In this document: piece after piece, positions 2,603 through 46,226 of the stretch
How the letters are laid out: every line of letters begins with the position of its first letter
Position numbering within the stretch: the first letter of the stretch is position 1
Origin: Candidatus Dormiibacterota bacterium
GTDB lineage: Bacteria; Chloroflexota; Dormibacteria; Aeolococcales; Aeolococcaceae
Direction: 5' to 3'
DNA length: 64,000 nt
Assembly (NCBI GenBank): GCA_019245575.1
Contig: JAFARE010000029.1
Coordinates: 4,158 to 68,157, forward strand
Notes under the pieces: generated by a model
Told to the model about the DNA's origin: nothing
The model's input: the letters and a program-made list of their open reading frames with translations, nothing else
Databases searched by the model: none
Program-made: the position numbers and the translations under genes

Positions 2603-3939
2603 CCGCCGCCCCGGCACCCCCCGGCGTCGTGCGCTCCGTCCGGCGCAAGCCGGGCAAGGCCGTGTTCATCCTGTACCGCCGTCACGACGGCGCCGTGCTC
2701 TGCCTCAACGTGGATGAGCGCGTCGCCGGCCCGGTCAGCAGCGGTGACATACCAGAGCTGGTGCACCGGCTGGAACACGCGGCGGGGAACGAGCCCTCCG
2801 CCGCCGAAGCAAGTGGCGTCTCCGTCCACGCTTTGCCCGAGGATCCCGGGCTGCCTGCGCTGCCCGCCGCATGGCATCCCACCGCAGGCGACGATCTCTG
2901 CGTCGGGCTGCAGGAGATGTTGAGCATCCGCGCTGAGCGTCGTGTGAACGTGGTGGACATCACCGCCATACCGCGGCACTACAAGCCGGGAAGCCGCTGC
3001 GTCATCGAGTACCGCTTGACGGTGCAGCACCCCGACGCCGCTTCGGTGGTCACGCAGGCGGTGTACGGCAAGCTGTTCGCCAAGCCTGCGCAGGCGCGCG
3101 ACATGGACGCTTCGTTGCGTCTCGTGGAGGCCGCATGCGAAGACGACGGCGCGGCGTTTCCGCGATGGAGCCCGAGGTCGCTCGGGGTGTGCGAGCCGCT
3201 GGGCATGTGCATCGTCGAGGCAGCTGGGACAAACGGCGACCTGCGCTCGGGCACGACCGTGCTGCGCCCGCACCGCGCCGCCCAAGCCGCACGCGCGCCA
3301 TGCATCCCCGTTGCCGAGCTCGAGCTCGCCGCCGGCGCACTGGTGCGGCTGCACACCTCGTCCATCGCGGCGGGCGGCCTGGAAGCGCGGAGCGCCCACT
3401 ACGAAGCCGAGCGCGCCGTGGAGCGGGGCGACCTCATTGCGGCGTATCACCCCGGTATGAGCGACGAGATTCACGCCGCGGCGCAGCGCGTGGCGGCGTC
3501 ACTCACCGAGCAGGCGGCGGCCGTCTCCCTCCCCTGTCACGGCAGCTACAAGCGCAGCCAGCTCGTGTACCCGTCCGACGGGACGGTCACGGTGGTGGAC
3601 TGGGATAGCATGTGCGCCGCCGACCCAGCACTCGACCTGGGTTGCTTCCTCGCCCACCTTCGCCCCGCCGGCATCTGGCAGGGGCGCCGCGCAGCACGCG
3701 CCTGGTTCGACGCCGCGTCATCGTTCTGGACCGACGCGTACGCGCGCGGCATGACGGCGCGGGGCGTGCCCCACGACGTCGTCGCGGGAATCGTCGGGCG
3801 CAGCGCGGCGTACGAGGCGGCCACGCTGCTCAAGATGGCGACGCGGCGGCTGCGCCGCCTCCAGAGTCCACGACCGCAGGAACTGCGCGCGACACTCGCC
3901 GCCGCGAGCTGCTGCCTCGCCGCCGATGCTGCCGCCTGA
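2599..3939 (+). CDS. Mak/APH-fold phosphotransferase-like protein, paralog 1 (HGS variant)
   Basis: 446 aa. C-terminal region CHGSYKRSQLVY...VVDWDSMCAADPALDLGCFLAHL aligns to the HGD-x4-Q-V catalytic loop and D-x-D metal loop of maltokinase/aminoglycoside-kinase-fold enzymes. Start overlaps the upstream stop (ATGA). Confidence 0.65.
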   Translation: MTAAPAPPGVVRSVRRKPGKAVFILYRRHDGAVLCLNVDERVAGPVSSGDIPELVHRLEHAAGNEPSAAEASGVSVHALPEDPGLPALPAAWHPTAGDDLCVGLQEMLSIRAERRVNVVDITAIPRHYKPGSRCVIEYRLTVQHPDAASVVTQAVYGKLFAKPAQARDMDASLRLVEAACEDDGAAFPRWSPRSLGVCEPLGMCIVEAAGTNGDLRSGTTVLRPHRAAQAARAPCIPVAELELAAGALVRLHTSSIAAGGLEARSAHYEAERAVERGDLIAAYHPGMSDEIHAAAQRVAASLTEQAAAVSLPCHGSYKRSQLVYPSDGTVTVVDWDSMCAADPALDLGCFLAHLRPAGIWQGRRAARAWFDAASSFWTDAYARGMTARGVPHDVVAGIVGRSAAYEAATLLKMATRRLRRLQSPRPQELRATLAAASCCLAADAAA

Positions 3940-5131
3940 GCTCGACCCTGCGCTCCCCGCCGCCGAAGCCGCGGTGGACACGGCAGCGGTTGCAGACGCG
4001 TTCCTGCGCTGCTGGCAGGGGCCCGGCCCGGCGCCCTCGGTGCGCGAGTGCGCGCCGGCATATGTGCGCTGGTGGCCGGGCGCCGAGCTGGTGGCGACCT
4101 TCACGCTGAAGCTGGAGGCTCCGTCTCCGCCGGGAGCGACGCTGATCAGCGTGTCGGTCCGCCCCGAGGGGACGCGTTACGCGCTGCTCGCCGCTGACAT
4201 CGGGCTGGACGGGCTTTCGCGGGCGACCGACCCCACGGCGATGACACCGGTGCTGCGCGACGCACTGCGGAGGGACATCCCCGCGTGCGCCATCACACCG
4301 GTGCGCTACCGCCCCATGCGGCGGTGTGTGCTGCGCTTTGACGTCGCGCCGGATGCGGCATCGGAAAGCGTCTACGGCAAGGTCCTTCGCGCCACTGAGG
4401 CGACAGCGCTGGCCGTCACGCTCCCGCTGCTGGGCGACATGGTCGCTCCGGTGCTGGCCACGGTGCCGCAGTGGGGCCTGATCATCCAGGCGAGCACCGG
4501 CGGCGACAGCCTGAACCGCGTGGGCAAGTCCGCCGCCACGCACTCCGACCTCGAGATGGTTGCCGGCGCCGCCCGGCTGCTCGCCCGCCTGCACGGCGCG
4601 TCCATCGACGCCGCTTCACGCACGCTGCAGGACGACGCGCATTCGCTGCTCGAGTTCGCGCCGGCGTGCGAGCGTTTCGCCCCCGGCGTGGCGGCGCGCC
4701 TTCGCGACGCCGCCGGACGGGTCGGATCGTTCCCCTCCAGCGACGACCTGGTGCCGAGCCACGGCGCATTCCGCCTCGACCAGGTGCACATCACGCAACG
4801 GGGCCCGGTGCTCATCGACGTCGACTCCTTCTGCGCGTCGGAGCGCGAGCGCGACCTGGGCAATCTCTTTGCCTACCTGTGCTGGCGCGCGATCCGGCGG
4901 CCGGACGCCGGCGACGCCGTCGACAGCGTCCGGACTCAGTTCCTGTCCGCGTACGAGCGCGCCGCGTCGCGACGCGTCGACGCCGAGCGGCTGCGTCTGT
5001 ATGAGGCGGTGTCGCTCCTCAAGATCGCGGGACGGCGATACCCGCGGCTGAAGACCGCCGAGTGGCCGCTCGTGCCGCAGCTGATCGACGCGGCAATCAC
5101 GCTGCTCGCCCCCGCGCCGGTGGCGCGATGA
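3926..5131 (+). CDS. Mak/APH-fold phosphotransferase-like protein, paralog 2 (HGA variant)
   Basis: 401 aa. Motifs VPSHGAFRLDQVHI...LIDVDSFCASERERDLGNLFAYL. 14-nt overlap with paralog 1. Confidence 0.65.
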   Translation: MLPPELDPALPAAEAAVDTAAVADAFLRCWQGPGPAPSVRECAPAYVRWWPGAELVATFTLKLEAPSPPGATLISVSVRPEGTRYALLAADIGLDGLSRATDPTAMTPVLRDALRRDIPACAITPVRYRPMRRCVLRFDVAPDAASESVYGKVLRATEATALAVTLPLLGDMVAPVLATVPQWGLIIQASTGGDSLNRVGKSAATHSDLEMVAGAARLLARLHGASIDAASRTLQDDAHSLLEFAPACERFAPGVAARLRDAAGRVGSFPSSDDLVPSHGAFRLDQVHITQRGPVLIDVDSFCASERERDLGNLFAYLCWRAIRRPDAGDAVDSVRTQFLSAYERAASRRVDAERLRLYEAVSLLKIAGRRYPRLKTAEWPLVPQLIDAAITLLAPAPVAR

Positions 5132-7340: not shown

Positions 7341-8692
7341 GCGTCTCGCTCGCTCAGGTGGCCGCACCCCAGGAGAACGCCGGCCTGCACGGCGACCTTC
7401 CGCACCTCGAGGCAGCCCTCGACCCGGAGCGGATGCGCGACGAGCTGGACGCGCTCCTCTTCGCGGGCACCGGCACGACCCTCCTGCGCTGCGGACGGCC
7501 GAAGCCGGAGGTCGGCGACGTGGGCTGCTCCATCCACTACCCGCTCCTGGTGCGGGACGCGTCCGGCACGGAGAGCCAGCGGCTGGCGCTCGCCGTGATG
7601 CTCCCTGGCGAGGGCGACGCCGAGCACTTTCATGCGCGGGAGCTGAGCCCGATCGCGGCGCGGCAACCGGCAGCCCCGGCAGGTGGGCCGCGCGCCACCG
7701 GCGTGCTCTCACACCTCCGGCTGGCGGTGAGCCTCTTCCCCGTCAGCGCAGCGCACCCCACGCTCGTGCTCGCTGCGGATCGCGAACTGGCCACCGCAGC
7801 GCTGCGCCCGCTGCTCCAGGGCAGCGACGCGGCCGTCACCGACGTTGTGCTGGTGCGGCTGCGCCGCTCACGGGGATGTGTGCTCCGGTACGAGCTCGAT
7901 CACGGCGCTCGCACCGCGGTCTTCGGCAAGGTCGGGTACCCCGCTGCCGCCGCAGGCGTCCAGGCGGCCCTCGACGCGCTGCGCGTCTCCGACGGCGCGA
8001 GCCGGGGTTCGGTAGTCTTTCCTCGCGGATTGGGGCGCTCGGCGGAGCTCGACGAGACGTTCGTCGAGGAGCTTCCAGGGAGACCGCCGGAACTTGAGCA
8101 GGAGACTGAACGTGCGCGAGTGGTCGACGTCGCCGCAGCCGTCGCAGCGGTTCTGCACGCGTCCGGCCCCGGCGCCGGGGACGAGCACGGGCTCGACGAC
8201 GAGGTCGCGCGCGCGGCGCGGCCGGTGCAGATGGTCGCGCGTTACGACGCCGGCCTGGCCGGATCGCTGCTCGCCGTGCTGAACGGGGTGACGCGCCAGG
8301 CGGCGCAGGCGCCCGCGGGCGAGCCCGTCTTCTCGCACGGCAGCTTCGCGCCGTCACAGCTGATGTTCGACGGCGACCGAACGGGTCTCCTCGACTTCGA
8401 GCGCGTCTGCCGGGCGGAGCCGGGGTTCGACCTGGGACGCTTCCTCGCGTCGCTGCGGACGTCCGTCTCACGCAAGGGTGCGAGTGACGCCGACGCGCTC
8501 GCGCAGCGCTTTCTCAGCGGCTACGTCGCCGCAGGCGGCAGTGCCGGCGCTGCGCAGCGCGCGTCGCTGTACGAGTGCGCCGCGCTCATCCGCACAGTGG
8601 CGCACAGCTGGCTGCAGCTGAAGACGTCCCGCCTGCAGCACGCTCTCGCAGTCCTCGAGGCGCGCCGCGAGTCGCTCGGTCTGGCCGGATGA
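7337..8692 (+). CDS. Mak/APH-fold phosphotransferase-like protein, paralog 4 (HGS variant)
   Basis: 451 aa. Motifs VFSHGSFAPSQLMF...LLDFERVCRAEPGFDLGRFLASL. ATGA overlap with the GT4 stop. Confidence 0.65.
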   Translation: MSVSLAQVAAPQENAGLHGDLPHLEAALDPERMRDELDALLFAGTGTTLLRCGRPKPEVGDVGCSIHYPLLVRDASGTESQRLALAVMLPGEGDAEHFHARELSPIAARQPAAPAGGPRATGVLSHLRLAVSLFPVSAAHPTLVLAADRELATAALRPLLQGSDAAVTDVVLVRLRRSRGCVLRYELDHGARTAVFGKVGYPAAAAGVQAALDALRVSDGASRGSVVFPRGLGRSAELDETFVEELPGRPPELEQETERARVVDVAAAVAAVLHASGPGAGDEHGLDDEVARAARPVQMVARYDAGLAGSLLAVLNGVTRQAAQAPAGEPVFSHGSFAPSQLMFDGDRTGLLDFERVCRAEPGFDLGRFLASLRTSVSRKGASDADALAQRFLSGYVAAGGSAGAAQRASLYECAALIRTVAHSWLQLKTSRLQHALAVLEARRESLGLAG

Positions 8693-9528
8693 AGAAGAAG
8701 CCGCTCCGCTTCTGCTTCATTGTGGAGGCGCCGTACCGGAACAGCCGACTGCCCATGGCGGTCGTCGAGCAGCTGCGCGCGTCGGGCCACGAGTGCAGCG
8801 TCATCGAGCCGCAGGTTGCGGTGGCGAACGTCAACGACCTCGCCGGCGACCGCGACTTCGACGCCATCGTGCTGCGCACCGTCTCCAACGGACCCGGGCT
8901 GAGCCTGCTGCACGCGCTGGGGGCGTGCGGTGTCACGACCATCAACGACGCGGAGGCCGTGCTCCGGGTGCGCGACAAGGTGGTCGTGGCCGCCATCGCG
9001 CGCGCGCATGGAATCCCGTTTCCGGACACGTACTTCCTGGCCGAGGCACGGCTCGTGGAGCAGGTGCCGGAACGGCTCTTCCCGCTGGTGGTGAAGCCCA
9101 GCTTCGGCGGGTTCGGCCGTAACATCCGCCTGATCCGCACGCCCCAGGAGGCGATGTCATTCGGCTCCAACGGCGGCCCGCACCACTGGGTGGCGCAGCC
9201 CTGGCTGCCCAACCTCGGATACGACGTGAAGCTGTACAACACGGGTCGCAGCATCCACGCGGTGCGCCGCCGCTCCTCGCTGCTGGGGGGCGCCGACGGC
9301 GACCGCGAGGTGATCCCACTCACCGACGCGATGCGCGATCTCGCGGAGCGCATCGGCGCAGCGTTCCAGCTGGAGATCTACGGGGCCGATGTGGTCGACA
9401 GCACCGAGGGCTGGATCGTCGTCGACGTCAACGACTTTCCGAGCTTCAAGATGATCGACGAGGCGCCGGAAGAGCTGGCGCGGTCCATCGTCGACATCAC
9501 GCGCCGCCGCCTCGCGCCGATCCGATGA
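8689..9528 (+). CDS. ATP-grasp domain ligase (RimK-like)
   Basis: About 279 aa from MKKKPLRF (ATGA overlap with the upstream stop). ATP-grasp signatures LVVKPSFGGFGRNIRLI and ...GADVVDSTEGWIVVDVNDFP. Confidence 0.65.
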   Translation: MKKKPLRFCFIVEAPYRNSRLPMAVVEQLRASGHECSVIEPQVAVANVNDLAGDRDFDAIVLRTVSNGPGLSLLHALGACGVTTINDAEAVLRVRDKVVVAAIARAHGIPFPDTYFLAEARLVEQVPERLFPLVVKPSFGGFGRNIRLIRTPQEAMSFGSNGGPHHWVAQPWLPNLGYDVKLYNTGRSIHAVRRRSSLLGGADGDREVIPLTDAMRDLAERIGAAFQLEIYGADVVDSTEGWIVVDVNDFPSFKMIDEAPEELARSIVDITRRRLAPIR

Positions 9529-10847
9529 TCCCCGCGCTGCCCGCGGCGGAGCTGGAGCCGCTCTGCAACCCAGCGCTTGCAGCACGCCTTCCCACACTCG
9601 CCGCCGCCATGGACGCAGCGACGATGGCGCAGCACCTGCAGCGGGCGCTCTTCTCCGGCTCGCCGTCGCGCGTCATTGCGTGCGGCCGGCCGCGTGCCGT
9701 GCTTGACGGCGACAGCTGCGCGCTGCAGTACCCGGTCACGCTGCTGGGGAGCGACGGCGCCGCGCTGCAGCTTCCCGTCCTTGCCGAGGTCTTCGCCACA
9801 GCAGAGGCCGCGCGGGACATGCACGACACGCTGCTCGGCCCCTTGAGCGAGGAGTGGGGCCGCATCGACATTGCCCAGCTGACGTGGAGCGCCGCGCTCG
9901 GCGAGCTGCGCATGGCGTGCAGCGTCTTCCCGGTCAGCGCGGCCCTGCCCCAGCTGGTGCGCGTCCTGGCGCCGGGATACCTCGACGCCCTGCTGCAGTC
10001 TTCGCTGCGCGACACGGAGATCCGCGTGGAGTCCGATGAGCTCGTGGTCTTGCGCCGCACCCGCGGCTGCGTGCTGCGCGTGCGCATCGAGGGACGAGAG
10101 CCACGCACCGCATATGCCAAGGTCGGGTACGCCGCCTACGGAGGCGCTGCCGCGGATGCGCTCGCGCAGCTGCGGAGCGGGCCGGTCACGCCTGCGCTCC
10201 GCCTGCCCGAGGTGCTCGGACGTGACGATGCGCTCGACGTCACGGTGCTGGCGGAGCTGCCAGGCACCCGCCCAGATCTGCGCACAGATGCCGAGCAGAT
10301 GGTCGGCGCGGCGGCGCGTTGCGCCGCCCTGCTGCACGCGTCACGCGTCGAGGGAGCGCCGCATCGCACGCTGCATGACGAGGTTGCGCGAGCGAGCGAC
10401 GCCGTGGACCGTGTGGCCCCCTATGCGCCGGCGGTGAGCTCGTGGCTGCGCGACGTGCTGCACGACGCGGAGTCCGCCGCGGGTGGCGGAGAAGAGGCGC
10501 CGGTGTTCTGCCACGGCGACCTCGCGCCGTCACAGGTGCTGCTGCACGAAGGCGTGCCCGCCATCCTCGACTTCGACAAGTGCTGCAGCGCCGAGCCCGC
10601 GCTGGACCTCGGCCGCTACCTCGCGTATCTCCGATTCGCGCTGGCCAAAGCCGGCGACCCGCGATCCGATCCGCTGGCGAAGGGATTCCTGCGCACATAC
10701 GAAACAGCCGGTGGGACGGTCCCACCGGCCGCTCGTCTGGCCGCCTACGAGACGGTTGCGCTGGTGCGCATGGCCGCTCGCAGCTGGCTGCAGCTCAAGC
10801 CGCAGCGGCTGCGACTGGCCTGCGACGTCATCGCACGGAGGTTGTGA
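9525..10847 (+). CDS. Mak/APH-fold phosphotransferase-like protein, paralog 5 (canonical HGD)
   Basis: 440 aa. VFCHGDLAPSQVLL...ILDFDKCCSAEPALDLGRYLAYL has the complete HGD-x4-QV catalytic loop and DFD, the closest to the maltokinase pattern. ATGA overlap with the ATP-grasp stop. Confidence 0.7.
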   Translation: MIPALPAAELEPLCNPALAARLPTLAAAMDAATMAQHLQRALFSGSPSRVIACGRPRAVLDGDSCALQYPVTLLGSDGAALQLPVLAEVFATAEAARDMHDTLLGPLSEEWGRIDIAQLTWSAALGELRMACSVFPVSAALPQLVRVLAPGYLDALLQSSLRDTEIRVESDELVVLRRTRGCVLRVRIEGREPRTAYAKVGYAAYGGAAADALAQLRSGPVTPALRLPEVLGRDDALDVTVLAELPGTRPDLRTDAEQMVGAAARCAALLHASRVEGAPHRTLHDEVARASDAVDRVAPYAPAVSSWLRDVLHDAESAAGGGEEAPVFCHGDLAPSQVLLHEGVPAILDFDKCCSAEPALDLGRYLAYLRFALAKAGDPRSDPLAKGFLRTYETAGGTVPPAARLAAYETVALVRMAARSWLQLKPQRLRLACDVIARRL

Positions 10848-23815: not shown

Positions 23816-25039
23816 TCAGCGGCGCACGCTGCGGCTGGCCACGCCGGTGAGCGACACCTCCGTGTCACCGGCGGCGCGCCGCGCGGAGCGCACGGCGGTG
23901 GCGAGCGTCTCCACCGCATCGTCCGCCTGGCGCCGCTCCAGGATCAGCGGAGGCATCAGCCGGATGACGTTGTTGTTGCCAGGAATGGCCAGAATGCCCC
24001 GCTCCTGAAGCGCGAGGAGGATACCCGCCGCGTTCTGCGTCATCTCCAGGCCGATCATCAGGCCCCTCCCCCGCACCTCCCGGATCTGGGCGATGCGCAG
24101 CGCACGGAGGCGGGCGAGGAAGTGCTCGCCGACGGTGGCCGCATGCGTCTGCAGCGTGGGATTGGTCACGATCGACAGGGTTGCGGCCGCCGCGGTGAAC
24201 ACCAGCGGGCTCCCCGCCTTCGCGTCACGGTGCCATCCGGGTCGAAGGCGGAGTCGGCGCGCGACCTCCGAGCGCATGGCCACGACACCGATGGGCAGCC
24301 CGCCGGCGAGGCTGCGGCCGAGGCACAGCATGTCCGGCGTCACCTGGTCGCGCGTGCACTGCAGCAGCGCCCCGCCGCGCAGCGCGGTGTCCACCTCGTC
24401 CGCGATCAGCAGCACGTCATGACGCCGGCACGCGCGCGCCGCAGCGGCAAGGTAACCGTCAGGCGGCACGTGCACACCTGCGTCGACCTGCACCGGCTCC
24501 ACGATCACCGCGGCCACCGTCTCGTTGAGCACGGCGTCGAGCGCCTCGACGTCGCCGAACGGCACGCTCATGGTGTCGCCCGCGCGCACGACGCGATGCA
24601 GCATCCGCGAGCGCTGGACGCCGGGTTCCGGCAGCGGCCCGCGCGCCGCACCGGTCATGACGATGATGCGGCGGCGCCGAGTCACCAGGCGCGCCGCGGT
24701 GACGGCCGCGGCGACGGCCTGCGTGCCGCTCTCCACGATCGTGACGTCGGTCAGCGCGTCGGGCGTCACGACGCTGAGTGCTTCGACCAGCTCGTCACGC
24801 GCGTCGGAGTCGACGGCGGCGTTCAGCGCAGTGACGCGGGTGAGCTGACGTGTCATCGCCTCGACCACGAGCGACTGCCCGTGGCCCAGCAGTGCGGCGC
24901 CGTCGTCGCCATCCAGGTCGAGGTAGCGACGGTCGTCCTCGTCCCACACGTATGCACCCTCGCCGCGCACGATGCGCAGAGGCCGCGGTGCGACCAGGGG
25001 CAGGAAGCGGAGCCAACGGCGTGGTAGAACGGCGTTCAT
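23816..25039 (-). CDS. Class III (omega-) aminotransferase family protein
   Basis: About 407 aa from the internal ATG at 25037-25039. AT-III fold motifs LLIADEVDTALRGG and VLCLGRSLAGGLPIGVVA. Somewhat divergent. Confidence 0.65.
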   Translation of the reverse strand: MNAVLPRRWLRFLPLVAPRPLRIVRGEGAYVWDEDDRRYLDLDGDDGAALLGHGQSLVVEAMTRQLTRVTALNAAVDSDARDELVEALSVVTPDALTDVTIVESGTQAVAAAVTAARLVTRRRRIIVMTGAARGPLPEPGVQRSRMLHRVVRAGDTMSVPFGDVEALDAVLNETVAAVIVEPVQVDAGVHVPPDGYLAAAARACRRHDVLLIADEVDTALRGGALLQCTRDQVTPDMLCLGRSLAGGLPIGVVAMRSEVARRLRLRPGWHRDAKAGSPLVFTAAAATLSIVTNPTLQTHAATVGEHFLARLRALRIAQIREVRGRGLMIGLEMTQNAAGILLALQERGILAIPGNNNVIRLMPPLILERRQADDAVETLATAVRSARRAAGDTEVSLTGVASRSVRR

Positions 25040-25139
25040 GATCGGTTCCGTTGCGCGTGGGAAAATGCCCCTCGCTGCCGCAACTGTAACCGGCAATTCG
25101 AGTTTGTGACCGATCCTGCGAAAACGAGGCTTGGGCGCT

Positions 25140-25240
25140 GTCCTTTGCGGGACCACGGGCGTCGAGCGGCTCTGCCGCTCGCGCCCTGCTACTCGGCTCG
25201 ACTCACGCTCCGAGGGCAGCCGTCTCGCCTCCGTAGACGG
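25140..25240. repeat. Intergenic repeated element, copy A (about 100 nt; shares a 24-nt and a 15-nt identical block with copy B at about 45.2 kb)
   Basis: Copy A: tgtcctttgcgggaccacgggcgtcgag...ACTCGGCTCGACTCACGCTCCGAGggcagCCGTCTCGCCTCCGTagacgg. Copy B at 45213-45312 has the same blocks. Internal hairpins CTCGG...CCGAG and CCGTCT...AGACGG. Confidence 0.5.
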
Positions 25241-25287
25241 TCCCGCATCGGACAGCGCCCCAACCTCTTCGCAGGCACGTCACACGC

Positions 25288-26115
25288 TCAATCGCCGGTT
25301 GCAATGGGGCGGCGAGGGTCCGTTATCCAGTCGCTCCAGCTGCCGACATAAAGCGCCGCGTCGATGCCGGCCACTGCGAGGGCGAGCACCTCCTGCGCCG
25401 CGGTGACTCCCGAGCCGCAGTAGGCCCCGACGGTGGTGCCCGGGTGGGCGCCGATTGCTTCGAACCGCGCACGGAGGTCGTCGGCCGGAAGCAGCAGTCC
25501 CGAGTCGCCCAGCAGGCCGGCGACCGGCAGGCTTCGCGCCCCCGGGATGTGGCCGGCCACGGGGTCCACCGGCTCCACCTCGCCGCGGAAGCGTGGGGCG
25601 GCGCGGGCGTCGAGGAGCAGGCCCTCTGCCGCGAGCCGGCCCGCGTCGCCGGCGTCCAGCAGAGGCATGTGTCCGGGGCTCGCGGTGAAGTCCCCGGCGA
25701 CGGGCGCGGGCTCTTCGGTCGTCAGGGGTCGAACCGCCGCGCGCCACGCCGCCAGGCCTCCGTCGAGCACGCGGACGTCCGGGTGGCCGTAGTAGCGAAG
25801 GTCCCACCAGGCGCGCGCCGCAGCCGCCCCGGCGCCGCCGTCGTACACCACCACCGGGCGCTCGCGGCTCACGCCGTGGGCCCGCATCGCCGCCTCGAAG
25901 ACGCGAGCGTCCGGAAGCGGATGCCGCCCCGGCCCCGGTGGACCGGCGAGCTCGCGGTCGAGGTCCGTGTAGACAGCCCCCGGGATGTGGCCCCGGCGGT
26001 AGCCCTCGACCCCCGGAGGCCCGCCGAGCTCCCAGCGGACGTCGAGCAGGGCGGGCGGAGTGGCCGACCGCATCGCGGCCGCAAGGTCGGAATCTGATAC
26101 CAGGGGCGATACCAT
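25288..26115 (-). CDS. Thiosulfate/3-mercaptopyruvate sulfurtransferase (tandem rhodanese domains)
   Basis: 275 aa. Active-site loop YCGSGVTA, two rhodanese modules. Confidence 0.8.
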   Translation of the reverse strand: MVSPLVSDSDLAAAMRSATPPALLDVRWELGGPPGVEGYRRGHIPGAVYTDLDRELAGPPGPGRHPLPDARVFEAAMRAHGVSRERPVVVYDGGAGAAAARAWWDLRYYGHPDVRVLDGGLAAWRAAVRPLTTEEPAPVAGDFTASPGHMPLLDAGDAGRLAAEGLLLDARAAPRFRGEVEPVDPVAGHIPGARSLPVAGLLGDSGLLLPADDLRARFEAIGAHPGTTVGAYCGSGVTAAQEVLALAVAGIDAALYVGSWSDWITDPRRPIATGD

Positions 26116-26228
26116 TGGGGTCGGGCGCCCTCCGCGTCGAAACCGGCCGGCGGACAGCGGCGTTCCCAGTTTGAAGGCCTCTCGAGCGCGGCCTGGCTGG
26201 AATCGAACAATGGTACGGTGGTAGATCG

Positions 26229-27503
26229 ATGACCCGAGGCTCTGGGGTGCGACGGCTGGGGCCGGCCGTGGCCGCCGGTTCGGCGGTGCTCGTGCTCGCT
26301 TCCTGCTCTGTCCCCACCGTGGTCGGCGGCGGCGCCCCGGCGCGCGCGACGCAGTCGCAGGCGCCCGCTGCTCCTCCGCATCTCACCGTGTCTCCGGGTT
26401 CGAACGGCCAGGGACTTCCCCTCGACACACCCGTGTACGTCGTGGCGGACTCCGGGCGGCTCACCGGCGTCAACTTCCAGGAGGCGGGAGTCGGCACCCC
26501 GTCCGGCGGACAGCTGTCACCCGACGGACACACGTGGCACATGGCGGACGGTCTCGACTCGTCCGCCAGCTACACGCTGACCGCAACGGCGTCGAACGGC
26601 GCGCAGACCGTGTCGTCGCATGTGAGCTTCACGACGCTGTCCGCCGGCGACCGGCTCGTCACCAATGTGTTCCCCGGCGACGGCAGCACCGTGGGTGTGG
26701 GCGAGCCCATCGACCTCACGTTCAACACATCGATCCCGGATGACCGCAAGGCCGCGCTGCTGAACCGCATCCAGGTCACATCGAACCCAGGTGTCATGGG
26801 CGCATGGCACTGGTTCTCCGACAGGCAGGTGCACTTCCGCCCGCAGAGCTACTGGCCCAGCGGCACGAAGGTGAACATCACGGCGAACCTCAAGGGATTC
26901 GACGCCGGCAACGGCACGTGGGGGCTCGGTGACTGGGCCCAGAGCTTCACCGTCGGCGCCAAGCACGTGTCGCTCATCGACGACACCACGCACCAGATGC
27001 AGGTGTACGACAACGACCAGCTGATCAACACCTGGCCCGTGAGCATGGGCAAGCCGGGCTTCCCCACGCTCGAGGGCACGCTCGTCGTGCTCTTCAAGGT
27101 CTACAAGGTGAAGATGAACTCGTGCTCCACCTTCGGCACCTCCGCGGCGTGCGTGCCGGGCGGCGCCAACTACTACGACGAGGACGTCTTCTACGACACG
27201 GCCATCTCCACGAACGGATTCTTCATCCATGCCGCGCCGTGGTCGGTGTACGCGCAGGGCTCCTACGACGTCTCTCACGGCTGCGTCAACCTGAGCACCG
27301 ACCGGGCGATCACGTTCTACAACTGGAGCCAGATCGGCGATGTGGTCGTCATCTCGCACACCGGCAACGTCGCCGACATCACCAACGGCGAGGCCGACTG
27401 GCAGATCCCCTTCAGCCAGTTCACCAACACGCCGGGTGACAGTCCCGTGTTCACCGGCAACGGCAGCGGTCCCACCGGCTCCGGCGTCACGCACACGTAC
27501 TGA
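26229..27503 (+). CDS. L,D-transpeptidase lipoprotein (LdtMt2-like: Ig-like domains plus YkuD catalytic domain)
   Basis: 424 aa. Lipobox LASCS. Catalytic motif SHGCVNLS, preceded by HAAPWSV. Confidence 0.8.
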   Translation: MTRGSGVRRLGPAVAAGSAVLVLASCSVPTVVGGGAPARATQSQAPAAPPHLTVSPGSNGQGLPLDTPVYVVADSGRLTGVNFQEAGVGTPSGGQLSPDGHTWHMADGLDSSASYTLTATASNGAQTVSSHVSFTTLSAGDRLVTNVFPGDGSTVGVGEPIDLTFNTSIPDDRKAALLNRIQVTSNPGVMGAWHWFSDRQVHFRPQSYWPSGTKVNITANLKGFDAGNGTWGLGDWAQSFTVGAKHVSLIDDTTHQMQVYDNDQLINTWPVSMGKPGFPTLEGTLVVLFKVYKVKMNSCSTFGTSAACVPGGANYYDEDVFYDTAISTNGFFIHAAPWSVYAQGSYDVSHGCVNLSTDRAITFYNWSQIGDVVVISHTGNVADITNGEADWQIPFSQFTNTPGDSPVFTGNGSGPTGSGVTHTY

Positions 27504-35525: not shown

Positions 35526-35605
35526 TGGCGGGGCGGCAGCGCCGCTCCGACAGCGACTCCCGAGACCCACTGCCCCACCCGCCCTCTACGGAGTGGCGAG
35601 GAGCA

Positions 35606-41344: not shown

Positions 41345-43942
41345 TCACACAGCCGTCTTCGACGGCGCCAGCACCTCGTCCAGCATGGCGAGAAAGTCCG
41401 CGATCTTGGCCGGTTTGACGATGTACGCGCGCGCCCCCATGTCGAGGAGGCGCTTGATCTGCCGTTCCGTCGCGTCGGCGCTGAACATCACCACAGGGAT
41501 GCTCGCCGTCTGGGAATCCTCGCGCAGCTGCTTGAGCACCTGGTCACCCGACATGTCGGGAAGGTGAAGGTCGAGCACGATGAGCGACGGGTTGTGCTCG
41601 CGCGCCAGATCCAGTGCGATGCTGCCCTGCAGCGCGTTGATCATGCGGATGCCCGGCCGCATGGCGAAGACGTCCTCCATCAGATCGACGGTGGCCAGGT
41701 TGTCCTCGACGTAGAGCACCGTGTGCTCCGCGGCGTCAGCAGCAGGCTGCTCCTGACGCACCGGCGGCCGCCGCCGTTCCGGCACCGCCTCGAGCGCCGC
41801 GCGCTGCAGCGTGATCCAGAAGGTGCTGCCCCTGCCCTCCTCCGAGGTGACCCCGATCTCCCCGCCCATCGCCTCCACGAGCTTCTTGGTCAGCGCGAGA
41901 CCGAGGCCCGTGCCGGGTGTGCCGGTGCGCTCCGCGCCCAGACGCTCGAACGGCTGGAACAGACGGCGCTGCAGCTCGGAGCTCAACCCGGGCCCGGTGT
42001 CGACCACCGACAGTCGCACCCTGCTGTCCGGCGTCGTCTCCGCGCGCACGGTCACGCTGGCGCCGCGACCCGCGTACTTCACCGCGTTGGACATGAGGTT
42101 GAGCAGCGCCTGCACCAGCCGCTGCCGGTCGGCCTGCACCACCGCGTCCGAGGTGCCATCCAGCTCGCGATTCACCGAGATGCCGTGGTCGCGCGCCGCG
42201 GGGCGCACCAGGCGCATGCACTCCTCCACCACCGCGCCCAGCGACACCGGCTCCGGTGCGAGCGTTTCTCGTCCCGCCTCGATGCGCGCGATGTCGAGCA
42301 CGTCGTTGACCAGGCTCAGGAGGTGGCTCGACGCCTCCTGGATGGCGGTGACAGCCTCCAGCTGGTCGTCGCGCGGGTCGCGCAGCTCGAGCAGGTCGCT
42401 GTATCCGAGGATGGCGGTGAGCGGTGTGCGCAGCTCGTGGCTCATGCGCGAGAGGTACTCGCTCTTGGCCGCGCTGGCTCGCTCCGCTTCGTCGCGCGCC
42501 CGGCGCAGGTCCTCGGCCGACTGCTTCTCACGGGTCACGTCGCGGTTGATCTCGAGCACGACGTCGGGGTTGCCCTCGTCGTCGAGCTGCAGCGCCCACC
42601 GCGCGCTGACGATGACGTGCCGTCCGTCCTTGGTCACCTGGCTGATCTCGGCCTCCCAGCCGCCGCGGTCGCGCAGGAGCTGCACCAGCTCGTCGCGGGG
42701 CACCGGCAGCGCGCTGTGCAGCAGCGCGCTCGGCTCCTGGCCCAGCGCCTCCTCCGACGTCCAGCCGTACATCGCCTGGGCGGCGCGGTTCCAGTAGCGC
42801 ACCTGCCCGTTCCTCGCATCCCAGGCGAGGATGGGGTTGTACGCCAGGTCGAGCAGCTCGCCGGTGCGGCGCACCCGTTCCACCAGCAGCACCCTGTCGA
42901 GCGCGGTGGTGACGGAGCTCGCGTAGTCCTGCAGGCGAGCCACCTCCTCCGCGCCGAAGAGTGGCGTGAGCGGCCCCGCCTGCACGGCGAGCACGCCCTT
43001 GCTGAACTGCGACTCCAGCCTCGCCTGCACCACGGTCGACGTGGAGCGCGCCCGCGGCTCGCCAGAAGCGTCGGCGGCGACGAGGGCCCGGCCCGCTTTA
43101 GCCTCGATTCCCCGGGTGACGGTGAGCTTGCCGTCGTCCGTCGCCAGCACCGCGATGCTGGCGCCCAGCAGCCGCGCCGCCCATTCGAGCGCACGCTCCG
43201 CCAGCGTCACACGGTCAGGCGAGAAGAGCAGCAGGTCGTTGAGGGCGAGCCGGAAGGCGCGCTCCTCCTCGGACCGCCAGAAGCGGCGGATCCAGCGCGG
43301 CGGCGCGAACGCCAGGTAGAACAGGGGCAGCAACAGCGCGGCGAGCGGTGTGGCTGTGGCGCTGTAGATCGCCTCTGCGGCGGGCAGGAAGCTCGCCACC
43401 ACGCCCATGACCAGGATGAGCACGATGCCCGCGTAGGCCGCGACCAGCGCCCGCGCCCGGGCGCGCTGCACGCGAGGCAGGCGGTGCGACAAGCGCCAGA
43501 TGCGGTAGATCGGCTCGCAGACGCACGCGCCCCAGACGGCGACCAGCGTGAGTCCCGCGACGCTCTGCAGCGCCGTGACCTTGGTGCTGCTGAGGCTGCC
43601 GGGTGCGTAGGCCACGATCAGCAGGATCGAGTCGCCGAGCACCAGCAGGCCGGACCCGATGCGCACCGCCCTGGGCAGCGGCACGAGCGTGTCCCGGAAG
43701 AGCAGGAAGGCCCAGCCCGACAGGGCGAAGAGCACGAGTGTGGCGTCGATGAGCGCGGCAGAGGTCGACGCCCCGCTGCCGAACGTGCTGATGAGGGCCA
43801 CGGCGCCGATCAGCCCGATCGAGGCGGCGAGGAACCGCCGGTAGTAGTCGCGGTGGCGCAGCCAGTCCACGACGGTGAGCAGGCCGAGCAGGCCGAAGGC
43901 TCCCCCCAATGCCCATTGCAGCGCCTGGGAAGCCGCGCTCAC
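41345..43942 (-). CDS. Hybrid sensor histidine kinase: multi-TM sensor, PAS/GAF region, HisKA, HATPase, C-terminal receiver
   Basis: 865 aa. H-box SHELRTPLTAILGY. G-boxes DTGPGL and GTGLGLAL. Receiver VLYVEDNLATVDL...LIVLDLHLPDMSG...VVMFSA. Starts 13 nt after the RibD-C-like start (same strand). Confidence 0.85.
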   Translation of the reverse strand: MSAASQALQWALGGAFGLLGLLTVVDWLRHRDYYRRFLAASIGLIGAVALISTFGSGASTSAALIDATLVLFALSGWAFLLFRDTLVPLPRAVRIGSGLLVLGDSILLIVAYAPGSLSSTKVTALQSVAGLTLVAVWGACVCEPIYRIWRLSHRLPRVQRARARALVAAYAGIVLILVMGVVASFLPAAEAIYSATATPLAALLLPLFYLAFAPPRWIRRFWRSEEERAFRLALNDLLLFSPDRVTLAERALEWAARLLGASIAVLATDDGKLTVTRGIEAKAGRALVAADASGEPRARSTSTVVQARLESQFSKGVLAVQAGPLTPLFGAEEVARLQDYASSVTTALDRVLLVERVRRTGELLDLAYNPILAWDARNGQVRYWNRAAQAMYGWTSEEALGQEPSALLHSALPVPRDELVQLLRDRGGWEAEISQVTKDGRHVIVSARWALQLDDEGNPDVVLEINRDVTREKQSAEDLRRARDEAERASAAKSEYLSRMSHELRTPLTAILGYSDLLELRDPRDDQLEAVTAIQEASSHLLSLVNDVLDIARIEAGRETLAPEPVSLGAVVEECMRLVRPAARDHGISVNRELDGTSDAVVQADRQRLVQALLNLMSNAVKYAGRGASVTVRAETTPDSRVRLSVVDTGPGLSSELQRRLFQPFERLGAERTGTPGTGLGLALTKKLVEAMGGEIGVTSEEGRGSTFWITLQRAALEAVPERRRPPVRQEQPAADAAEHTVLYVEDNLATVDLMEDVFAMRPGIRMINALQGSIALDLAREHNPSLIVLDLHLPDMSGDQVLKQLREDSQTASIPVVMFSADATERQIKRLLDMGARAYIVKPAKIADFLAMLDEVLAPSKTAV

Positions 43943-44024
43943 GGTGCCTCAGTATCGGATGTGATGGGGCAACGACGAGAGTTTTCGTCGATTGGGACAG
44001 GATCGCGACGAGTCGGGCAGGTGC

Positions 44025-45125
44025 TCAGGAGGGGACTGGCGCCCGTTCCAGCGCCGCCACCACCGCATCCGCCACCTGGGAGGTGCCCACCGCGCTGGGG
44101 TCGTCGCGCTGCTGCTTCATGTCGTACGTGACGCTGTGCCCTTCGGCGATGACCGCGGCGATGGCTGCTTCGAGCCGGTCGCCGGCCTCGCGCTCTCCGA
44201 TGTGGCGCAGCATCAGCACGCCGCTCAGCATCATCGCCATCGGGTTGGCCTTGTTCTGACCGGCGTACTTCGGCGCGCTGCCGTGCGTTGCCTCGAAGAC
44301 CGCGATCTCGTCGCCCGTGTTGGCGCCCGGCGCGAGACCCAGGCCGCCCACCAGTCCGGCGCACAGGTCACTGAGGATGTCGCCGTACAGGTTGGGCATG
44401 ACCATGACCTCGTACAGCTCCGGCTTCTGCACCAGCTGCATGGCCATGTTGTCGACGATGCGGTCCTCGAACTCGATGTCCGGGAACTCCTTGCTCACCT
44501 CTTCCGCAACTCGCAACCACAGCCCGTCGGTGTGCTTCATGATGTTCGCCTTGTGCACCGCCGTCACCTTGTGGCGGCCGTTGTCACGGGCCCATTGGAA
44601 GGCGAAGCGGTACACGCGCTGCGTGCCATAGATCGATATCGGCTTGATGCTGATGCCTGAGTCGTCCCGGATCCTGCGCCCGCCCAACCGCTCGATTGCC
44701 TCGATGAGCTCGAGTGTTTGCGGCTCAGCCTCGGCGAACTCGATGCCCGCGTAGAGGTCCTCGGTGTTCTCGCGGACGATGACGAGGTCGACGTTCTCGT
44801 AGCGGCTGCGCACCCCCGGGTACCACTTGCACGGCCGCACCAGCGCGAAGAGATCGAGCTCACGTCGCAGGGCCACATTGACGCTGCGGATTCCCTTGCC
44901 AACCGGTGTCGTCAGCGGTCCCTTGATGGCGACCTTGTTGCGCCGGATGGAGTCGAGAACGTGCGCGGGCATCGGCTCGCCGTAGCGCTCCATCACGTCG
45001 AGGCCGGCGTCGTGCACCTCCCATTCGATGTCGGCGCCGGTCGCGTCGATGACGCGCCGCGCCGCAGCGCTCACCTCGGGACCGACGCCATCGCCGGGGA
45101 TCAGCGTGATCGTGTGTCGAGCCAT
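44025..45125 (-). CDS. icd: Isocitrate dehydrogenase (isocitrate/isopropylmalate dehydrogenase family)
   Basis: 366 aa from the internal ATG ([18 protein letters not shown]). [20 protein letters not shown] and [13 protein letters not shown] resemble IDH more than LeuB. The 348-codon upstream extension of the ORF is non-coding. Confidence 0.6.
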
Positions 45126-45212
45126 GCTGGGGAGTGCCTCCGTGCGCCGCGTCCTACTGCCGACGCATTGTGCCGCCTGTCGTGCAGCGGCCGGTTCTGG
45201 ATGGGGAGGCAG

Positions 45213-45312
45213 AGATGTCCTTCCGGCGGGACGCGGTCGAAGCCCCTCCGGGGCCTCGCCGCTCGACACTCGGCTCGACTCACGCTCCGAGCCGGACCGT
45301 CTCGCCTCCGTG
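45213..45312. repeat. Intergenic repeated element, copy B (paired with 25140-25240); contains a 32-codon ORF with GGAGG SD on the plus strand
   Basis: gatgtccttccggcgggacgcggtcgaag...ACTCGGCTCGACTCACGCTCCGAGccggaCCGTCTCGCCTCCGTgacg. GGAGGcagagATG at 45201-45216. Small [38 protein letters not shown] about 45214, stop about 45310-45312. Confidence 0.5.
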
Positions 45313-45365
45313 ACGCCCGCCTTCACGACACCTCCGCCTCCCCATCCAGTGCGCACACTGCCCGG

Positions 45366-46226
45366 ATGCGGACGGATGCGCTGCGGCGCTGGTACGCGGC
45401 GCACGGACGCCATACGTTGCCGTGGCGCTCGACACACGATCCCTGGGCGGTGCTCGTGTCCGAGGTGATGCTGCAGCAGACGCAGGTGGCGCGCGTCGTG
45501 CCCAAGTGGGAGGCGTTCATGGCCCGCTGGCCGTCGCCCGAGGCCTGCGCCGGGGCCGAGCTCACGGAGGTCCTGCGGCTCTGGCAGGGGCTGGGGTACC
45601 CGCGGCGGGCACTGGCGCTGCATCGCTGCGCACAGATCGTCTCCGCGCAGGGCTGGCCCAAGTCCCAGGCCGGGCTGCGTGCCCTCCCCGGCGTCGGCGC
45701 CTACACGGCGCGGGCGCTGCTCGCCCTGGCGTTCCGACGACCCGGGCGGCCGCCGCTCGACGTGAACATCCGCCGCGTCGGCGCCAGGGCCGGGCTCGCC
45801 GCCGAGCCGCACCAGGTCACCGACGCCGCTGTCGAAGAGGCGCTGATGACGGCGCGCCCTGCCCGCATGAGCCGGCGGGACTACACGCTCGCGCTGTTCG
45901 ACGCGGGGGCGCTGCACTGCCGGGCCGTGCCCCGCTGCGACGGGTGTCCCCTCGCGGGCGGCTGCGCATGGCGCAGGCGGCCGCCCGCTGCAGCGGCGGG
46001 CGAGCGCCGGCGACAGCCGCGGTACGAGGGGAGCTTCCGCCAGCTGCGCGGAGCGCTCCTCGACGCCTGGCTGCGCACACGCAGCGGGGACGAGGCGGAG
46101 CTCGCCGCGGCTGCGGCCGCCGGCCTCCAGAGCGCGGCGGATGCCGAGCGCGTGGCGCGTGCGCTGCACAGCCTGGTGGCCGACGGGCTCATTCCCGCCG
46201 AACGCGCTCCGTCACAGGCTGGCTAA
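45366..46226 (+). CDS. HhH-GPD DNA glycosylase with 4Fe-4S loop (MutY/adenine glycosylase-like, short form)
   Basis: About 286 aa from the internal [35 protein letters not shown], FeS loop [16 protein letters not shown]. Confidence 0.7.

Follow-up and report, generated by a model that had tools for sequence, protein, structure and literature searches.

Small dispersed palindromic repeats are a known kind of bacterial DNA. They include the repetitive extragenic palindromes of Proteobacteria (REP, BIME and REPIN), which are mobilised by RAYT transposases, and bacterial miniature inverted-repeat transposable elements (MITEs) such as ERIC/IRU (127-bp imperfect palindromes), Correia/NEMIS, RUP and BOX. 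The correction of inverted repeats by template switching is likewise a known process. Quasi-palindrome mutagenesis of this type was described by Ripley (1982) and in work of the Lovett laboratory, reviewed in PMC5941160, and template switching is an established mechanism for the concerted evolution of inverted-repeat arms and for the creation of a hairpin in a single event (PMC5941160); the birth of hairpins, in a single event, and of miRNAs by template switching is also reported in PMC10710096. Two matching stretches of intergenic DNA, here called copies A and B, lie in a 64,000-nt stretch of Candidatus Dormiibacterota assembly GCA_019245575.1 (contig JAFARE010000029.1, positions 4,158–68,157), which is referred to as the window and in which all positions are given unless another contig is named. 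They appear to be copies of a small dispersed repeat, so far seen in one branch of Candidatus Dormibacteraeota only, an uncultured soil phylum to which the organism is also assigned by the names of close homologues. Each sits at the centre of a long imperfect palindrome, and the reading favoured here, with a probability of roughly 0.55, is that of a selfish DNA repeat of the REP/MITE type, restricted to one lineage, with a hairpin from which palindromes grow by template switching.

The two copies share a 24-mer, ACTCGGCTCGACTCACGCTCCGAG, which occurs at exactly two sites of the window, 25191–25214 and 45268–45291, on the + strand in both cases. No third match was found in the 64 kb at up to three mismatches, and none of 100 shuffles gave any. 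A 15-mer, CCGTCTCGCCTCCGT, located by pattern search at 25220–25234 and 45297–45311, is weak by itself (at least two near-matches in 13 of 100 shuffles) and follows the 24-mer at an identical offset of 5 nt in A and B. The initial annotation, made from the letters alone, had reported this pair of identical strings, and both were recovered, at 25191–25234 and 45268–45311. The ungapped block common to the two copies measures 57 nt, with 81% identity. Profile hidden Markov model (HMM) matches delimit cores of about 89 nt on the + strand at 25155–25243 for copy A (E = 1.5e-14) and at 45230–45318 for copy B (E = 6e-21), supported by the exact pattern matches and, for copy A, by an alignment of seven family members. 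The recurring unit is an asymmetric core of about 85–90 nt, laid out in copy A as a left hairpin (helix 1) followed by a sequence-conserved right half of about 50 nt that holds the 24-mer and the 15-mer.

Both copies are intergenic, in the non-coding gaps where they had been placed. Copy A is flanked by two minus-strand genes, one for a class-III aminotransferase, which starts at 25039, and one for a rhodanese-type sulfurtransferase, whose stop codon is at 25288–25290. Copy B lies between the divergent starts of icd, encoding an NAD-dependent isocitrate dehydrogenase (45125, minus), and of mutY (45366, plus). The distance from the start of the 24-mer to the minus-strand gene start is 152 nt for A and 143 nt for B. 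The common orientation and similar spacing pointed out earlier thus hold, and the spacing is similar because both copies are the centres of palindromes of similar size. Locus B recurs in two other assemblies (L001, ENA; L002, NCBI GCA_019242035.1) with one base different, and locus A in JGI contig L011 with zero differences across the ~280 nt inspected, so the sequence is not an assembly artefact. The palindromes were ruled out as artefacts as well, being imperfect, located inside long contigs and recurrent in independent assemblies.

What had been missed is that each core (about 85 nt) is the centre of an imperfect palindrome of 330–420 bp. The left flank was aligned locally with the right flank in reverse complement, which gave arms at 25030–25154 and 25239–25358 for palindrome A (78% identity, score 43) and at 45061–45230 and 45316–45477 for palindrome B (75% identity, score 43). 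Random window positions scored 14.3 ± 2.9 and never above 25; scores were 11–17 for non-cognate flank pairs and 38–43 for cognate ones. When the whole window was scanned at a reporting threshold of 27, loci A and B alone reached it, and a generic repeat search ranked them as the top two inverted repeats of the window. The sub-blocks of each palindrome have a common centre, at 45273–45274 in locus B, where they include a perfect 15-nt inverted repeat at 45107–45121 and 45427–45441. Chance as the origin of the outer arms was rejected, as they share their centre with the inner arms and score about 10 standard deviations over background; the outermost stretches of the longest arms are close to background. 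Folded as single strands, loci A and B gave −168 to −189 kcal/mol on either strand (z = −7 to −12), with −182 kcal/mol and z = −11.9 for 25045–25340 at locus A, and z = −7.3 (+ strand) and −8.7 (− strand) at locus B.

Except for a short stretch beside the core, the arms of A and B are of unrelated sequence. The left arm of copy A takes in the 5′ untranslated region (UTR), start codon and first codons of the aminotransferase gene, and is an inverted match to a right arm made of 49 nt of non-coding DNA and the last ~24 sulfurtransferase codons. In copy B the left arm consists of inserted DNA, the icd 5′ UTR, its Shine-Dalgarno site, the start codon and about 21 icd codons, and the right arm of inserted DNA and the first ~37 mutY codons.

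Four full copies carry the identical 24-mer. Two are A and B of the window; the others, L007 and L012, come from metagenome sample Ga0213880, in which locus A was found too (L011). L012 lies between convergent aceE (pyruvate dehydrogenase E1) and ligT (2′-5′ RNA ligase) genes, and L007 downstream of a response-regulator/ATPase gene, where it is cut by the contig end. Three diverged copies, L018a, L018b and L017b, were found in related Dormibacteraeota genomes by way of the icd neighbourhoods of the relatives. L018a occupies the mutY–icd spacer as copy B does, but in the opposite orientation, and L018b and L017b occupy one orthologous site between convergent HhH-GPD and alcohol-dehydrogenase (ADH) genes. 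At this same site, identified by tblastn synteny, the window retains a decayed relic of a third copy (35527–35556, minus strand, between convergent HhH-GPD glycosylase and alcohol-dehydrogenase genes), which consists of helix 1 only (GTCGGAGCGGCGCTGCCGCCCCGCC) and gives a weak HMM match over model positions 3–32. In L019 the two genes abut with nothing between them. At locus A the closest relative is L020 (sulfurtransferase 81% identical). It has no core there, but an outer palindrome persists weakly (score 19), together with a relic of helix 1 oriented as in copy A. Both relics have kept helix 1 only and show decay by loss of the conserved half. A diagnostic 13-mer, CTGCCGCCCCGCC, occurs three times in ~400 kb, in elements or relics every time.

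With at least four full copies in the species or its sample, three in relatives, two relics and unrelated neighbours, the small dispersed MITE/REP-like repeat listed among the candidates of the initial annotation is the one supported. Wherever both flanks of a full copy are available, the copy is the centre of a palindrome; the scores are 38–45 for A, B, L012 and L018a and 27–28 for L017b and L018b, against a background of 12–14 ± 2.5–2.9. The flanking pairs comprise a tandem pair (sseA, the sulfurtransferase gene, and the aminotransferase gene), a divergent pair (icd/mutY, found twice with the element, in opposite orientations) and convergent pairs (aceE/ligT and HhH-GPD/ADH); convergent genes account for three of the six loci with both flanks readable. 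The cores form two subgroups, one of B, L007 and L012 with an identical block of 41 nt, the other of L018a, L018b and L017b with GCTCGCC and CCGGCTCGCCT. Such clustering by genome fits intragenomic copying. The opposite orientation of B and L018a, their unrelated inner arms and their genome-specific core variants argue for independent insertions, though an inversion is possible and the insertion point of B is blurred by the palindrome. Copy density in the carrier genomes is about one per 20–30 kb, counted over ~64 kb of this genome (two full copies and one relic) and ~40 kb of L018 (two copies). In L017b (L017 20140–20282) an extra, perfect-looking hairpin of ~50 nt (CACCCCACGAAGTC...GACTTCGTGGGG) stands between helix 1 and the conserved right half; since it is absent from L018b at the same locus, new hairpins arise within the element too.

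The family was confined to this branch in all searches made. About 167 kb of more distant Dormibacteraeota (icd 84–87% identical) contained neither cores nor long palindromes, and scans of 185,579 species-representative genomes for an exact 21-mer and a two-block pattern revealed no family member, the single hit (L013) being a signal-peptide coding sequence. Among six metagenome hits, L008–L010 were chance matches. No match to the element was found by blastn in plasmid and phage collections, and the 18-mer GGCTCGACTCACGCTCCG in four related IMG/VR viral contigs (L003–L006) was a chance occurrence, within a nearly identical stretch of other sequence and with the second block absent. Literature searches found no description of Dormibacteraeota repeats.

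Comparison with element-free sites showed what had been gained with the element. The mutY–icd spacer is 240 nt long in the window and 241 nt in L018, both with the element (palindrome scores 43 and 41), whereas spacers without it measure 71–72 nt in L014–L017 and score 12–14 in L014, L017 and L019. The stop-to-stop distance between aceE and ligT is 151 nt in L012 and 6–12 nt in L035–L037, and the sulfurtransferase–aminotransferase spacer is 248 nt in the window and 90 nt in L021; L021 and L022 are without a palindrome. Inserted DNA amounts to ~168 nt at B and ~169 nt at L018a, which exceeds the shared core. By manual alignment, both inserts are made up of the core, locus-specific inner arms and ~30 nt readable as an inverted copy of one native flank. 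A direct target-site duplication is at most an ambiguous 3-nt CGT at L018a relative to the empty sites, the junctions being blurred by flank conversion.

The genomes with empty sites also served as outgroups to polarise substitutions in the arms, each derived change being scored against the partner base of the opposite arm. In the mutY arm of the window, 12 of 17 lineage-specific changes equal the icd-side partner base, which the ancestral base had matched at only 3 of the 17 positions. Two of three changes in the window icd match their partner, and the counts in L018 are 6/10 and 2/2. In L012, the match is 6 of 7 derived changes in aceE and, by hand count, 8 of 9 in ligT. Pooled, 36 of 48 derived changes match the partner base (P < 1e-6 even at a chance-match rate of 40%), whereas few of the ancestral bases did, so that outgroup-polarised changes preferentially create complementarity between the arms, as in template switching, with pairings taken from a match-maximising alignment. 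The changes reach the proteins. MutY PWRATRDPW has become PWRSTHDPW, where the mutY DNA equals inverted icd codons 2–6 over 15 nt; AceE YGLDTEL has become YELRTEL, with the C-terminus changed from ...HYGLDTELPDPRYR to ...HYELRTELPDPRIR before the stop; and LigT YTERTSL has become YELHTSL, with ...RYTERTSLPFA before the stop replaced by ...RYELHTSLQLSA. The window icd start keeps the N-terminal form that predominates among the 70 closest homologues inspected, which indicates that the conversion in the window went into mutY.

Set against the REP/REPIN families, the element is similar in being small, non-coding, hairpin-forming, strictly intergenic, often placed between convergent genes, dispersed and lineage-specific, and its copies are likewise more alike within than between genomes and decay at orthologous sites. 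The difference lies in the conserved unit. In REPs the repeated unit is itself the palindrome (20–40 nt), whereas here the arms are locus-unique, differing completely between A, B, L012, L018a and L018b, and what is conserved is an asymmetric apex of ~50 nt. REPs number tens to hundreds per genome, and we know of none whose palindrome has been described as growing outward into the flanking genes. Bacterial MITEs resemble the element in the length inserted (~100–170 nt), in forming imperfect palindromes without coding capacity, in lying at or in gene ends and in being able to alter UTRs. Unlike MITEs, which have family-wide terminal inverted repeats and target-site duplications, the element shows neither feature evidently, and part of a native flank recurs on its other side as an inverted copy. 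The sequences TGTCCTT..GCGGGAC and GTCCCGC..GGACA are shared by A and B only; at the corresponding positions L012, L018a, L018b and L017b have unrelated sequence.

With known template switching the palindromes share clustered substitutions that make complementarity, compensatory changes without RNA-level selection, and arms that evolve together. Known cases, however, are mostly short (arms of 5–30 nt) and sporadic, while the arms here span 80–200 nt, occur at every copy of one repeat family and overwrite the coding ends of conserved enzymes. Two further systems are more remote. Integron attC sites are also imperfect palindromes, with structure conserved beyond arm sequence, and are thought to act as folded single-stranded DNA, but they have conserved outer R and L boxes around a variable centre, the reverse of the present pattern, and lie at cassette boundaries beside an integron integrase, neither of which was seen here. 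Mitochondrial hairpin repeats and GC clusters are similarly small and GC-rich, invade intergenic regions and sometimes gene ends, and have no known transposase; they belong to another domain and genome type, and have conserved hairpins rather than a conserved apex with locus-specific arms. That apex with its locus-specific arms, arm lengths of up to ~200 nt, and the linkage of one family to the palindromisation of gene ends, seen against empty-site outgroups, appear to be new.

On the favoured reading, that of a selfish repeat which nucleates palindrome growth, copies would have spread within the genome to new intergenic sites, by a mobility going beyond copying through conversion. The right half (~50 nt) is probably the recognition sequence for whatever activity copies the element, and may be bound as such by a protein. 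Once inserted, the core and the inner inverted repeats would form a hairpin or cruciform nucleus at the DNA level, where repeated intrastrand template switching would copy one flank onto the other in inverted form (quasi-palindrome 'correction'). The palindrome would then grow outward to arms of 80–200 nt, overwriting the non-coding flanks and changing the initial or final codons of adjacent genes by substitutions that are tolerated. The left hairpin evolves freely provided that pairing persists. Effects on icd, mutY, the aminotransferase or the sulfurtransferase would be side effects, such as a hairpin in a UTR or an altered promoter or leader, and not a shared regulatory design.

Several observations weigh against this selfish-repeat reading. 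No transposase or other mobilising enzyme was found; RAYT proteins (Y1/HUH) are absent from the Pfam labels in the gene tables of the fetched loci, the remaining window genes being unscanned. Conserved terminal inverted repeats and a clear target-site duplication are both missing, and only the distribution of the copies argues for mobility. Copy numbers come from ~64 kb of this genome and ~40 kb of L018. The match-maximising pairings used in the substitution test inflate the match rate somewhat, and selection for a longer stem, not mutational bias, may be the driver of arm growth. The weak palindrome of L020 (score 19), which lacks the full core, was read as a decayed copy because a helix-1 relic is present at its centre; it could also mean that palindromes precede the core. 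The conservation of the right half fits a functional RNA or a host-protein site equally. In all six loci the core-minus strand folds at least as well as the other strand, with an advantage of 0 to 18.5 kcal/mol, which hints weakly at a strand-specific structure.

A more far-reaching proposal, advanced here only tentatively, is that the core represents a new type of mobile DNA which, by inserting or by persisting, actively turns its surroundings into a palindrome, through an inverted flank copy of ~30 nt at insertion and further tracts thereafter, so that the 5′ or 3′ ends of housekeeping genes such as mutY, icd, aceE, ligT and sseA are repeatedly rewritten. An enzyme dedicated to such DNA might exist, as might insertion by a fold-back mechanism. 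If this were true, template-switch mutagenesis would have a natural, recurrent source seeded at defined loci, and the element would generate long hairpins in an uncultured phylum.

Among the rivals, a structured non-coding RNA survives best, although it is considered doubtful. The core would then be a small RNA of three hairpins, or an RNA protein-binding module transcribed by read-through, with the long stem serving processing or stability as a substrate of RNase III, like the stems that flank rRNA. The very stable folds (z = −7 to −12), a three-hairpin junction closed by a long stem in every copy, and the core-minus strand preference noted above are what this predicts, as are stems that keep structure and not sequence even at an orthologous locus (L017b and L018b) and a right half under sequence constraint. 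Also in its favour, 6 of the 12 pairs of helix 1 have undergone compensatory double changes in the alignment of family members. The covariation proposed as a check on the initial annotation was therefore present in helix 1 and failed elsewhere: in helices 2 and 3 it is practically absent, with a single doubly changed pair in helix 3 and invariance or breakage otherwise, and helix 3 pairs differently in the two core subfamilies. As only helix 1 covaries, the right ~50 nt are conserved as sequence, with the consensus CTCGGCTCG.C....CGCTCC.AG.....C.G.CTCGCCT.CG..GACG.

A stem selected as RNA would be expected to be enriched in G·U on the transcribed strand and poor in mismatches of the transversion type, and the arms are neither. 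Over 860 arm positions of six loci, 648 are Watson-Crick pairs, 38 are G·T, 36 are A·C and 138 are other mismatches; 65% of the mismatches are non-wobble, and the symmetry of G·T and A·C indicates that no transcribed strand has been selected for pairing. Arms of 80–200 nt that enter coding sequence and alter amino acids also far exceed the needs of a processing stem, and the orientation to flanking genes is inconsistent, being opposite at the icd–mutY locus itself. A sigma-70 promoter scan found none at locus A or B, no AT-rich −10-like hexamer was apparent by eye in the conserved part of the core, and a scan for intrinsic terminators, which are GC-rich stems of 5–20 bp with a short loop and a U tract behind them, returned no site at either locus, with no T tract after any hairpin. 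No tRNA or tmRNA was detected in the window by ARAGORN. Rfam gave no hits over the whole window at the gathering threshold and, at E ≤ 10, only chance hits at both loci (a plant miRNA hairpin and snoRNAs). Taken together, the palindromes point to a feature at the DNA level over a selected RNA stem.

Two other explanations appear improbable, to about the same degree. A chromosomal protein-binding role has been proposed for some REP/BIME clusters, and the element could likewise be a host-beneficial binding site, for a nucleoid, topoisomerase or termination-related protein, with the right-half G(G/T)CTCG(A/C)C boxes as putative platform and the palindrome as structural context. The right half is indeed conserved as sequence and not as structure, it repeats GCTCG(A/C)C-type boxes ~12 and 29 nt apart, it is exactly the part lost from both relics, and the element occurs in intergenic sites of all kinds. 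Presence or absence nevertheless varies among close relatives and orthologous sites decay, which argues against an essential host function; a protein-binding site is in any case compatible with a selfish repeat, a transposase being such a protein.

The other possibility is that the palindromes came first, a mobile core preferring the tips of pre-existing hairpins or palindromes (terminator stems, abutting convergent stop codons) and the arms being target sequence. This would suit two seemingly independent insertions in one 72-nt mutY–icd spacer, the short native hairpins at empty sites, such as ACGCGGCG...CGCCGCGT, which follows sseA in L021, and TGACC..GGTCA, which in L035 stands between the stop codons of aceE and ligT, and the L020 palindrome, which scores 19 without the full core. 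However, the empty sites have no long palindrome (scores of 8–14, equal to background), the arms carry derived coding substitutions that arose only in element-carrying lineages, and the centre of the L020 palindrome keeps a helix-1 relic oriented as copy A, marking it as a decayed copy and not a naive target. A target preference for small hairpins may exist all the same, and is compatible with a selfish repeat that nucleates palindrome growth.

The one rival that is essentially excluded is a shared cis-regulatory leader, or a transcription-factor or sigma-factor site, for icd and the aminotransferase gene, which the initial annotation had suggested and for which the position of both window copies 143–152 nt upstream of a minus-strand metabolic gene in the same orientation would speak: orthologous icd and aminotransferase genes in most relatives examined are without the element, including an element-free mutY–icd spacer beside icd genes whose proteins are 90–93% identical (L014, L017 and L019) and an element-free aminotransferase locus in L021 (90-nt spacer) and L022; the only other icd–mutY element (L018a) is inverted; the remaining copies lie downstream of a response-regulator gene or between convergent genes (aceE/ligT and HhH-GPD/ADH), where there is nothing to regulate in cis; and no riboswitch or leader family matched. 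A false lead is thereby removed, icd and the aminotransferase gene being without a common regulator.

What remains is a repeat family that appears not to have been reported before, with clean presence, absence and relic states at four loci, in a phylum (Candidatus Dormibacteraeota) of which hardly anything but metagenomes is known. In this natural system a defined small element goes together at all times with a growing palindrome that reaches conserved genes, and outgroups polarise the changes. Template-switch correction, well established for short repeats, appears here over hundreds of bases, repeatedly and with consequences at the protein level. If this holds across complete genomes, the family would make it possible to measure directly at what rate, over what tract lengths and in which direction templates are switched in wild bacteria, and would show the birth of long hairpins and possibly of new structured RNAs or terminators. 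On the practical side, such palindromes can mislead assemblers and gene callers, as illustrated by a shadow reading frame at copy A and by inconsistent gene starts.

The class-III aminotransferase gene (23816–25039, minus strand) was assigned from its translation and from PF00202 in orthologue gene calls. The gene is not part of the element, although its start region lies inside the left arm of copy A; the start ATGAACGCCGT is kept in L020, with a near-match, ATGAACGCAGT, in L021. The rhodanese-type sulfurtransferase gene sseA (25288–26115, minus strand) is an open reading frame (ORF) of 275 aa whose last codons fall in the right arm of copy A. Its homologues are named thiosulfate/3-mercaptopyruvate sulfurtransferase (PF00581), and its 3′ end was set by translation and by the orthologues in L020–L022, which end in ...DPRRPIATGD before the stop. 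A 420-aa ORF at 25280–26542 (minus strand), which covers the flank of copy A and overlaps the sulfurtransferase gene in another frame, was discarded, the R-, P- and G-rich composition of its product marking it as a shadow frame of high-GC DNA.

Flanking copy B, icd (44025–45125, minus strand) was identified by translation, PF00180 and homologue names. The conserved right half carries CCTCC on the + strand (25226–25230 and 45303–45307), that is, GGAGG on the minus strand, which on a minus-strand transcript at copy B would make a second Shine-Dalgarno-like site ~165 nt upstream of that of icd (45137–45141); no suitably spaced start codon accompanies it. The region beyond icd is otherwise syntenic. 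A 178-aa GNAT acetyltransferase gene stands between icd and a PAS/HisKA sensor kinase gene in L014 (10041–10577), L017 (11112–11648) and L018 (11114–11650), while the sensor kinase follows icd directly in this species (L001 gene table; about 43940–44025 in the window) and in L019.

The mutY gene (45366–46226, plus strand) encodes a MutY/HhH-GPD glycosylase, and its codons 7–37, in the right arm, hold the lineage-specific changes that match the icd side. The ATG at 45366 agrees with the gene calls of L001 and L002 and with orthologues. In relatives the mutY start is called inconsistently (L018 9640–9760; L019 around 9843), giving products of 304, 237 and 286–288 aa, and an alignment of the conserved N-terminus (MWTRGLAGWY...) settled its position; the prediction of starts seems to be confused there by 5′ regions that are palindromic or GC-rich. 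L019 also shows a low-identity palindrome-like signal at 9063–9522 (score 31, arms of ~220 nt, 17-nt loop) that has no core, lies in coding sequence near the formyltransferase/mutY boundary and is probably a compositional or coding coincidence.

Elsewhere in the window, four diverged direct repeats of 70 nt (3593–3662, 4812–4881, 8388–8457 and 10564–10633) lie 1.2–3.6 kb apart, with 64–73% identity, and further direct-repeat segments were found at 8323–8372 and 10499–10548. The 70-nt repeats resemble a conserved coding motif of paralogues (...FDFE..C..EPA.DLG...), perhaps a kinase or phosphotransferase-like cluster.

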